A DNA stretch of 24,803 bases from Candidatus Baldrarchaeum yapensis. GTDB taxonomy: Archaea > Asgardarchaeota > Baldrarchaeia > Baldrarchaeales > Baldrarchaeaceae. Of this stretch, positions 21-1,796 are shown one piece after another. The number at the start of each line of letters is the position of its first letter. Position 1 is the stretch's first letter. Location: the NCBI GenBank assembly GCA_016840465.1, contig JAEOSH010000028.1:1-24803 (forward strand). Direction: 5' to 3'. A model generated the notes under the pieces. That model did not search any database, had not been told where the DNA came from, and saw nothing but the letters and a program-made list of their open reading frames with translations. The position numbers and the translations under genes were made by a program.

Positions 21-1796
21 GCCCCTGTTGTGCCGATCTCTGCAAAAATGAAGTGGGGAATAGAGGAACTCCTAAGTGAAGCAATTGCACATATAAAAGC
101 GAAAAGGGGAAAGGATAAGAGAATCGTAGTTTTGGGGCATGAGAGAAAAACGGGTATAGGGCAGGTTTTTCTCCTCTCGATTAGAGGGGGGACCATACGA
201 GAGGGGGAGGAATTAGGGCCTGTGAAAATAAGGGCGATATATGATCTTAGCATGAGGAGGAAGGGGGAAGCAAGAGCAGGGGAAATAGTATATGCGTCCA
301 TGATGGGCGAGGTGGCCGTCGGCACGGAAATCCTAGCGGACGGAACAATAAGGAAATCTGAGATATTTACCGAGGACATTTATCCCTCGAAGGTATTTAA
401 ACTGTCTCTCGATGCTGAAGGTCTCCAAAAGGCAATGAAAGTACTGGAGGGATTGTCAGGCGAAATTCATGGGTTTAAAGTGGAAAGAATCGATGGAGGC
501 CTCCAAATAAGCGTGCTTGGAGATATGCAAATGAAATACATAGAGGATGCGTTATCAGAGGCTGGGATCTCCTTCAAAATAGTAAGTGAGCGAAGAAAGG
601 GAATAGTCACTGTAGCGGGGCGTGGAGAGGCCCATGTTGGCACCGCTCATGTAGAAGTGCTTCCCAGAACGGTACCGAGGATAATAGTCACTCGATACGA
701 TTATGATGTGACTATGGATTTCGACTGGGTTACAGCATCTACCGTTGCCGACGCTTTGGGAATAGAGGGAATGCTCGTCATCATCCACCGTGGCGAGAAC
801 CCAGATGATCTTGCTGAGGCAATAGCAAAAGCAGTAGAAAAGGCAGGGTTAATGGAGGTATTTCCTCAAGGAAATGTTGTGGTGAGAACCCCAAAAGTTT
901 CGGAAATCATAAAGCTAACCTATGCGCATGGAGGGCAGATTCTTGAAAGTCGAGAGAACTCGCTGTGGATTTTATTACCAACATTTGAGTTAGACTCATT
1001 TGTCGATGAAGTATACTCGGTAACGGCCGGAAAAGTGGAGGTAAAGTTGATAGTACCGCCAAAGGAGGCAATCTTAGGCATTGACCCTGGTACAAAGCAT
1101 GTTGGCCTAGCTTATATTCAGGGAAGCACTGTAGAGGTTTGGCATATAAACTTTCCACAACCCCTCACCGAAAGGAAGAGTCAGCAGGCAATGATGTCGA
1201 AGTTCGTGAGGGAATTAAGACTATTCCTCGAAGGGAAAGATAAACCAACTAAGGTATTCATAGGGCTGGGTCCAGGTCTCAAATACGCCTATGAGGCGGT
1301 ACAAAGAGTCTTAGGAGATAGTATCAATGTATTCGGCGTAGATGAGACATGTACGACGAAAGAAGCATTATATCTAATATCGAGCGGTAAAATATTGGCG
1401 AAGAGATTTAAGGGAATTGTGGACCACGCTTACGCGGCGGTATTGATAGCAAAACATCGGCAGGTCGTTGGGAAGATAATGAGAGTGAGGCACGCAAGAC
1501 GTAAACTTGAAACATACATAGCATCGCATTCCCTGATAGGCTACATGTTCAAGAGGCTTGCTGGCGTGCATACGCTTCGAGATCTCAGGCCTGGAACCTA
1601 CATTGAAGTTAAAGATCCATCATATATAGACGGAAAAGTGTCAAAGGGCGATGTCTTCATATATTGGGGATTAACTAAAAATGGCGTGCTTGTACATACG
1701 CTTGCCGGATGCAGAATGGTCCTGCGCTGGAAAGCAGGAGTGCATCCAGAAAGGGATTTCTTTAAAGCGTTTAGCCCGGTAAAGCCAAGAACCTAA
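21..1796 (+). CDS. 5'-truncated EF-G/LepA/TetM-like translation-factor GTPase fused to a YqgF/RuvX-like RNase H-fold nuclease and an unknown C-terminal domain
   Basis: PVVPISAK..GIEELL is a G5 motif. GGTIREGEE..EARAGEIV is domain II. ISVLGDMQMKYIEDAL resembles domain III G.GELHL. AHGGQI...LPTFELDSFVDEVYSVTAGK resembles domain V. ILGIDPGTKHVGLA, VFIGLG, VDETCTTKEA and VDHAYAAVLI match YqgF motifs. Confidence 0.8.
   Translation, partial: APVVPISAKMKWGIEELLSEAIAHIKAKRGKDKRIVVLGHERKTGIGQVFLLSIRGGTIREGEELGPVKIRAIYDLSMRRKGEARAGEIVYASMMGEVAVGTEILADGTIRKSEIFTEDIYPSKVFKLSLDAEGLQKAMKVLEGLSGEIHGFKVERIDGGLQISVLGDMQMKYIEDALSEAGISFKIVSERRKGIVTVAGRGEAHVGTAHVEVLPRTVPRIIVTRYDYDVTMDFDWVTASTVADALGIEGMLVIIHRGENPDDLAEAIAKAVEKAGLMEVFPQGNVVVRTPKVSEIIKLTYAHGGQILESRENSLWILLPTFELDSFVDEVYSVTAGKVEVKLIVPPKEAILGIDPGTKHVGLAYIQGSTVEVWHINFPQPLTERKSQQAMMSKFVRELRLFLEGKDKPTKVFIGLGPGLKYAYEAVQRVLGDSINVFGVDETCTTKEALYLISSGKILAKRFKGIVDHAYAAVLIAKHRQVVGKIMRVRHARRKLETYIASHSLIGYMFKRLAGVHTLRDLRPGTYIEVKDPSYIDGKVSKGDVFIYWGLTKNGVLVHTLAGCRMVLRWKAGVHPERDFFKAFSPVKPRT

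Follow-up and report, generated by a model that had tools for sequence, protein, structure and literature searches.

What does an archaeon do with a translation factor that carries a ribonuclease fold at its C-terminus? This question is raised by the gene that opens contig JAEOSH010000028.1 of Candidatus Baldrarchaeum yapensis (assembly GCA_016840465.1), positions 1 to 24,803 of which, read on the forward strand, are called the window here. A single plus-strand frame opens with the contig and ends at a stop codon at 1794-1796, and it is a genuine, 5'-cut gene of an archaeal translational-GTPase (trGTPase) family member. A preliminary description of the window had seen in this frame a G5 motif and EF-G-like domains that continue into a YqgF-type nuclease, and had proposed that the GTPase delivers the nuclease to ribosomes. 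That interpretation is partly supported: the anatomy is right in every tested point, and the function had been inferred. As judged from sequence, the family is a new, rare but conserved archaeal trGTPase lineage that carries a fused nuclease. The role that we hold to be slightly better than evenly probable is that of a ribosome-activated GTPase that would place its YqgF nuclease on ribosome-bound RNA, with small-subunit pre-rRNA, during maturation or proofreading, as the preferred substrate.

The truncated gene and the junction of its two halves

The start of the window is composed of two features. P0002, to which the second is compared, is a full-length 727-residue orthologue that is encoded on two independent assemblies and serves as the reference for residue numbering throughout.

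1..19, no strand: Nextera transposase mosaic-end adapter, non-genomic, recognised by direct reading of the sequence (AGATGTGTATAAGAGACAG)
20..1796, plus strand: 5'-truncated coding sequence, residues 136/137-727 of the 727-residue GTPase-nuclease fusion, 98% identical to P0002 over its whole length

The adapter was left untrimmed at the contig end, and native sequence extends from base 20 on. Because bases 1-19 are adapter-derived, the apparent ATG and the first six codons (MCIRDS) of the listed open reading frame (ORF) are an artefact. Window positions 1-33 are matched by many unrelated short contigs in public runs. Upstream of base 20, native contigs from four public runs encode ...KRQLMEIGLH, exactly as is found before APVVPISAK in the full-length orthologue. 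When the ORF is numbered from nucleotide 3, as was done correctly in the preliminary description, D361 corresponds to D491 of P0002, D447/E448 to D577/E578, and D474 to D604. The window protein and P0002 differ at nine amino acids, clustered at nucleotides 231-359 and all located in domain II. In this region (176-389), two strain variants with 17 differing positions occur together in three of the four public runs examined, and these variants explain the nine differences.

The junction between domain V and the YqgF domain lies at approximately 1040-1070, where a chimeric join had been named at the outset as an outcome that would undo the whole description. No such join was found. Positions 360-2400 are spanned by contigs of three public runs and positions 20-2400 by contigs of one more, from four studies in all, and neither a joint nor a loose end is seen at the junction. 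P0002 is whole on both of its assemblies, where it has the same neighbours as in the window, and one open frame of 735-820 residues is present in approximately 40 orthologues, among them proteins only 31-44% identical. The adapter at the contig start does betray imperfect read trimming, which is the one observation in keeping with a misassembly that fused two genes; against it stand the contigs that bridge the junction in four runs from four studies and the identical single frame in two other assemblies and the orthologues. This explanation is almost certainly wrong, and it was dropped on the strength of the junction-crossing contigs and the intact P0002. The fusion is not an assembly chimera.

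Domain anatomy of the fusion protein

Domain borders were taken from a full-length AlphaFold model (mean pLDDT 78.9) and are given in P0002 numbering after the window coordinates. All features are on the plus strand.

21..98: end of the G domain (residues 1-162), the only part of it that the window keeps; PF00009 match of 4e-38 in P0002
39-47: G5 motif SAK; S143, A144 and K145 invariant or almost invariant
120..347: domain II, the beta-barrel of translational GTPases (residues 170-245); EF-G_D2 and GTP_EFTU_D2 matches, PDB profile and model
384..596: domain III, specific to the EF-G/EF2 family (residues 258-328); profile and model strands and helices at 260-328
603..845: domain IV-like module, shortened (residues 331-411); VIA structural alignment
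849..1052: domain V, EFG_C-like (residues 413-480); weak EFG_C match and structure
1068..1457: YqgF/RuvX domain, a predicted nuclease of RNase H fold (residues 486-615); PF03652 match at 1068-1448
1083-1085 (D of GIDPG), 1341-1346 (D-E of VDETCTT) and 1422-1427 (D-H of VDHAYAA): predicted catalytic residues; alignment
1458..1577: basic helical linker, RVRHARRKLE... (residues 616-655); charge and model helices at 628-643
1578..1793: C-terminal SH3-like beta-barrel with a conserved tail, F..F.PVK (residues 656-727); model and structure matches

The G1-G4 motifs lie upstream of the contig end, and the window itself has G5 only. A search for full-length homologs, which the preliminary description had proposed for this purpose, recovered them: the AGHVDHGKS P-loop, the switch-I residue T41, the DTPGH motif with its catalytic His64, the [NT]KxD motif and SAK are invariant in 11 full-length sequences. 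The G domain, which is matched by PF00009 (GTP_EFTU) at 4.3e-38 in P0002, is short and has no G' insert. From these motifs, the GTPase is predicted to be competent. Domain II is recognised in family members by EF-G_D2 (3.6e-8) and GTP_EFTU_D2 (1.2e-4) and corresponds to model strands at 170-245. For domains II and III together, a profile of the middle region of the family, compared to the PDB, finds TetM (7e-10), aEF2 (1.7e-9) and RF3 (1e-5). The domain IV-like module is approximately 80 residues long, relative to approximately 120 in EF-G. For domain V, weak EFG_C matches in two members (0.0027) are joined by structural alignment to EF-G and LepA that extends up to model residues 456-485 (Z 30-35). 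In the VIA comparison, the model resembles ribosome-bound EF-G, aEF2 and Snu114 with Z scores of 33-35; model residues 1-420 align to residues 3-621 of EF-G, the short domain IV included, and LepA is aligned over model residues 1-456. Profiles and model thus agree with the uninterrupted frame of G5, II, III, short IV and V that had been described, and the protein is predicted to have an intact translational GTPase domain with an EF-G/aEF2/LepA-like body.

The RNase H-like half also holds up. The Pfam RuvX profile (PF03652, gathering cut-off 29.2 bits) scores 28.1 bits in the fragment, just under the cut-off; for the C-terminal half by itself it gives 31.3 bits and spans model positions 2-128 of 134. 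Of 18 family members, 17 are matched (best 2.5e-8), and in the genome from which the window derives, this domain is the single RuvX-like sequence. Profile searches therefore uphold both modules, PF00009 and the II+III profile for one and RuvX for the other, and the domain matches are far beyond chance. No change is seen at D491, D577-E578 or D604-H605 in 18 sequences of proteins that are only 31-44% identical. In alignment with Escherichia coli YqgF, D491, D577-E578 and D604 pair with D9, D95-E96 and D122, in the register GIDPGTKHVG/AFDFGTKSIG, VDETCTTKEA/HDERLSTVEA and VDHAYAA/VDSASAV. An hhalign comparison of the C-terminal-half profile with the single E. coli YqgF sequence gives the same motif register as MAFFT (E 0.0034, probability 9.5%). 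Searched against PDB sequences, the same profile finds nothing significant, the best match being RuvC at E 0.56.

Of the three carboxylates, D491 is the Asp of beta1, E578 the Glu at the end of beta5 and D604 the Asp of alpha3. In the model, the core has pLDDT values above 85, and the stretch between beta5 and alpha3 is modelled with low confidence; this stretch coincides with one that is flexible in YqgF crystals (PMC9601230). D491, E578 and D604 also agree in position and motif with residues of Deinococcus radiodurans YqgF whose mutation impairs or abolishes RNase activity (PMC9601230). A carboxylate triad and DE and DH dyads that stay invariant at 31-44% identity are what would be expected from selection on catalysis, and the nuclease, with its three catalytic carboxylates complete, is apparently active.

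This invariance bears on a reading in which the YqgF module would bind RNA without cutting it and the protein would serve as an assembly GTPase in a LepA/BipA-like biogenesis or stress role. The YqgF-like domains of Tex and Spt6, for which nuclease activity has not been demonstrated (PMC3985635), offer a precedent, and both turn up in the structural comparison (Z 8.2 and 7.5); LepA and BipA work without RNA cleavage. Tex, however, lacks the third carboxylate (PMC3985635), whereas all three carboxylates and both dyads are invariant here. We consider a non-catalytic module distinctly unlikely.

A fold search with the YqgF core returns RuvC (Z 9.0), Tex (8.2), the YqgF structures 1vhx (8.0) and 1nmn (7.5) and Spt6 (7.5). 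ASKHA kinases and the central domain of Pelota score equally to these YqgF relatives, so the fold alone does not discriminate. The Pelota match is of interest for a surveillance nuclease, a factor that would enter stalled ribosomes at an A site that is empty or blocked, in the manner of EF-G domain IV or Pelota, and cut mRNA in a no-go-decay type of reaction, or tRNA, under the control of GTP. The RNase H-like core resembles the central domain of Pelota/eRF1 (Z 8.2-8.4), a domain that, with a GTPase as partner, binds in the A site; the EF-G-type body has a domain IV-like module, which in EF-G reaches the decoding centre; and the nuclease triad is intact. Archaea are not known to have an identified no-go-decay endonuclease. 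The likeness to Pelota is nevertheless at the level of a common fold, shared by the ASKHA kinases, and the sequence signal is that of YqgF, not Pelota. Moreover, the distribution described below is too narrow for general quality control, and no rescue factors co-occur in the neighbourhood. Surveillance is the main rival to pre-rRNA cleavage, and we judge it unlikely.

The nuclease domain is followed by two basic elements. The net charge of the linker is positive (+1 to +9) in each of the 11 orthologues, even in the Methanopyrus proteins, which are acidic elsewhere. The barrel is modelled with a pLDDT of approximately 90, has a net charge of +4 to +9 and contains invariant G661, L697, G699, P722 and K724; its structure matches are NdhS and the 2B domains of Pif1/RecD2. 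An Atlas search with the sequence features of the barrel gave no usable match. In a Foldseek search with the C-terminal half, the best matches are integrase catalytic cores with their SH3-like C-terminal domain (TM 0.21-0.26). This pairing of an RNase H core with an SH3-like barrel could be taken to point to DNA, with a YqgF module that would act on branched DNA or RNA/DNA hybrids, to resolve or trim them, and a GTPase that works off the ribosome. Some YqgF/RuvX proteins do cut Holliday junctions or hybrids (PMC9601230), and Snu114, which matches the model at Z 33, is an EF2-type body that acts in the spliceosome. Yet the integrase similarity amounts to those TM scores, the catalytic histidine and all trGTPase motifs for activation by the ribosome are kept, and DNA-repair genes are absent from the neighbourhood. 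A DNA-directed enzyme appears highly improbable.

Distribution, relatives and gene neighbourhood

When 1.84 billion representatives were searched exhaustively with phmmer, 10 clusters were returned, which by their source names belong to Methanopyrus and to Asgard archaea of Baldr, Odin, Loki and 'Asgardarchaeia' type. A separate orthologue search of genome contigs was dominated by G1-motif matches and returned two true orthologues. Within the Asgard phylum, 35 of 400 genomes have the gene. Its occurrence by lineage is as follows.

One Loki-type family: gene in 33 of 135 genomes
Another Asgard family: gene in 1 of 1 genome
Methanopyrus lineage: gene in 6 of 6 genomes, one of which is a single contig of 1.7 Mb

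The gene occurs in one copy, has conserved surroundings in the Loki-type genomes and is core in the Methanopyrus lineage; where present, it behaves as a housekeeping gene. One Methanopyrus-lineage copy (G404:C88:33627-34367) has an in-frame TAA in its C-terminal half, which is either a sequencing error or a pseudogene.

In a tree built on the G domain plus domain II (20 rows), the family forms a clade with support of 100/99, in which the Methanopyrus proteins are sister to the Asgard members and both branches are deep and separate. The clade stands apart from LepA, BipA, EF-G, RF3 and the two aEF2 proteins of the same genome, with which it groups weakly (74/64), and IF2 may be equally near. 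One row from that genome (L006), a non-translational GTPase with a very long branch, was taken out of the first tree. The two aEF2-type genes are found on contigs C94 and C32 (L002 and L003), and the presence of two such genes has been reported for Asgard archaea (PMC6143161). With two aEF2-type genes in the genome, the fusion protein is the third EF-G-shaped factor there.

The architecture had not been recognised in the preliminary description, and this assessment stands. NCBIfam equivalog cut-offs are not reached for lepA (TIGR01393; 104.8 of 533.9 bits), TypA (96.8 of 757.3), EF-G (68 of 659) or aEF-2 (TIGR00490; 55 of 738). Database names are 'GTP-binding protein' or, for fragments, 'RuvX, partial', and the AlphaFold DB entry is nameless. 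A GTPase-YqgF fusion is undescribed in the full-text literature searched, the trGTPase census, the Asgard EF2 paper and a survey of the RNase H superfamily, a search that did not extend to arCOG and InterPro. The published census holds one archaea-specific addition, aSelBL (PMC4342817); the family would add a further archaea-specific trGTPase beside it, with an architecture found in no described factor.

The preliminary description had also called for a search for conserved neighbours. In an all-against-all ORF comparison of 27 loci, synteny is observed within the Loki-type family only, and no neighbour is common to all lineages. In the window and in near-identical assemblies, the gene is followed by a 100-residue ORF, a metallophosphoesterase and MoaC, and a DUF131 gene lies upstream in the assemblies with the full-length gene (L009/L010 only). 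The 100-residue ORF (2016-2318) has no similarity to an ORF of approximately 100 residues downstream in L105. The neighbours in Methanopyrus are dCTP deaminase and MBL-fold genes. In the Loki-type loci (L103-L126), a DSPc phosphatase of approximately 150 residues directly precedes the gene on the same strand and a zinc-ribbon protein of approximately 113 residues follows it; the synteny is family-wide and includes genes like that of glycerol-3-phosphate dehydrogenase. This DSPc-gene-zinc-ribbon arrangement may be a lineage-specific operon. An RsmB/F-type methyltransferase is found no more than 5-6 kb away in two unrelated lineages, Methanopyrus and an Odin-like one, and its proximity is a weak hint of a link to the ribosome.

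Distribution and neighbourhood also bear on a further option, a regulated toxin, as raised in the preliminary description, or an anti-virus effector, which on a trigger would cut rRNA or tRNA and so disable ribosomes. Ribosome-targeting nuclease effectors are common in toxin systems, and the patchy presence in lineages as distant as Asgard archaea and Methanopyrus could reflect horizontal transfer. The depth and separation of the Methanopyrus and Asgard branches are, however, not suggestive of recent transfer. A PADLOC scan detected only generic LeoA/LeoBC GTPase similarity over the G domain (E 7e-10 to 5e-4), no antitoxin-like or defence neighbour is conserved across lineages, and a single-copy gene that is syntenic in Loki-type genomes and present in 6 of 6 Methanopyrus-lineage genomes is not what such an effector would lead one to expect. 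The toxin option finds no support in these observations and is very unlikely. It, the non-catalytic module and the DNA-directed enzyme are each less likely than either action on pre-rRNA or surveillance.

Elsewhere in the window, an island of 55-66% GC at approximately 9100-10500, relative to a background of 42-44%, lies between a KaiC-like ATPase gene (8205-8933) and an aldehyde:ferredoxin oxidoreductase gene (11023-12855). It contains ORFs on both strands without a Pfam match and no Rfam family (E 0.1), tRNA or tandem repeat; the fold z-score of its plus strand (+0.72) gives no sign of structured RNA. The island may be a foreign insert. An ELP3-type gene of the radical-SAM/acetyltransferase family (16442-18067) and a gene of the histone-deacetylase family (15246-16343) adjoin each other and have ordinary annotations.

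Proposed role and comparison with known systems

The idea that the GTPase delivers a nuclease to the ribosome fits the predicted architecture and the known roles of YqgF and of LepA and BipA. In the mechanism we favour, the factor would dock at the ribosomal GTPase centre, as other EF-G-family factors do, and the ribosome would trigger its GTPase through the conserved histidine of DTPGH. The GTP-bound factor would hold the YqgF module, which follows domain V at the place where LepA has its own C-terminal domain, against ribosome-bound RNA, with the basic linker and the barrel helping to grip this RNA. The RNA would then be cut, and GTP hydrolysis would release the factor. The substrate would be the pre-rRNA of the small subunit, cut in a ribosome that is assembled or close to maturity. 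This substrate is favoured because E. coli YqgF acts in the 70S ribosome, LepA and BipA are biogenesis factors and the gene is housekeeping-like. In the account given in PMC9601230, which cites Kurata 2015, E. coli YqgF processes pre-16S rRNA within 70S ribosomes only. LepA is the top-scoring relative of P0002 in the PDB and NCBIfam, BipA is near, and RefSeq annotates the two as 30S and 50S biogenesis factors.

Several observations weigh against this assignment. The pTM of the full-length model is 0.57, a value at which the placement of the nuclease relative to the EF-G body is unreliable and the position of the active site on the ribosome is not fixed. None of the sequence profiles supports domain IV, for which the support is structural only. 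The neighbourhood varies by lineage, so the context gives no firm functional link. In the sister family in the window's order, the gene is present in none of four genomes, and since the family is absent from most archaea, it cannot perform a universal step. The public runs listed are DNA throughout, with no RNA run among them. Finally, the substrate of YqgF is itself disputed, with pre-16S rRNA, Holliday junctions and RNA/DNA hybrids all proposed (PMC9601230).

More broadly, the chances seem evenly balanced that this is the first translational GTPase with an active endonuclease of its own, a GTP-gated, ribosome-docked RNase that would cut rRNA, mRNA or tRNA from the factor-binding site; its gene is core in Methanopyrus and has been retained in several Asgard lineages. 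In that case, the family would speak independently for an ancestral function of YqgF at the ribosome. It bears on whether YqgF/RuvX proteins serve in rRNA maturation or at DNA junctions. It also bears on the identity of the archaeal nucleases that trim or survey rRNA and RNA bound to ribosomes. The covalent union of a nuclease with an EF-G-type body lets one ask whether the ribosomal GTPase centre licenses an RNA cut, and the presence of the gene in 6 of 6 Methanopyrus-lineage genomes means that a thermostable protein and matching ribosomes may come from a cultured organism.

Among known factors, the closest in plan are LepA (EF4) and BipA/TypA, ribosome-dependent GTPases that RefSeq describes as subunit biogenesis factors. 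Like the fusion protein, they have a short G domain that lacks a G' insert, next domains II, III and V, and last a C-terminal module peculiar to each family. LepA is the best sequence match of P0002 (3e-26 in the PDB; 104.8 bits), with TypA near (96.8 bits), and it matches the model structurally over residues 1-456. In contrast to both, the fusion protein has a domain IV-like module, a nuclease as its C-terminal module, an archaeal host and a separate clade in the G+II tree, and it scores far under the equivalog cut-offs of 533.9 and 757.3 bits. Scanned with Pfam at E values up to 1, neither P0002 nor P0004 shows a LepA_C match, and a YqgF domain is found in that position. With EF-G, aEF2, eEF2 and Snu114, the protein shares the five-domain body (Z 33-35) and domains II and III that are recognised by profile; unlike them, it has no G' insert, its domain IV is approximately 40 residues shorter with unconserved tip loops, and approximately 245 residues are added at its C-terminus.

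The nuclease half resembles YqgF/RuvX in its RNase H fold and in three motifs, each of which holds a catalytic carboxylate: G-x-D-x-G-x-x-x-x-G, D-E-x-x-[ST]-[ST]-x-E-A and D-x-x-x-A-A. YqgF is essentially bacterial (the RuvX profile matched 10 of 14 control genomes, all bacterial) and is a free-standing protein of approximately 140 residues, whereas here it is the sixth domain of a GTPase in an archaeal host. In addition, the fusion has G-x-G-x-G after beta4 in place of the GLP motif, and the Loki-type proteins have an insert of 20-35 residues before beta5. As in Tex and Spt6 (Z 8.2 and 7.5), the YqgF fold is located inside a large, multidomain, putatively RNA-binding protein and is followed by further candidate nucleic-acid-binding modules. 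The triad is complete in the fusion, in contrast to Tex, which has neither the third carboxylate nor a demonstrated nuclease activity (PMC3985635), and the partner domains are unrelated.

The stimulation of Nob1 cleavage of 20S pre-rRNA by eIF5B/Fun12 and the pairing of Pelota with aEF1A/Hbs1 provide an analogy, and an analogy only, for a translational GTPase that works with a module acting on RNA in the assembled ribosome. Nob1, a PIN-domain nuclease, and Pelota, which is eRF1-like and not a nuclease, are proteins separate from their GTPases, whereas the fusion protein has both in one chain.

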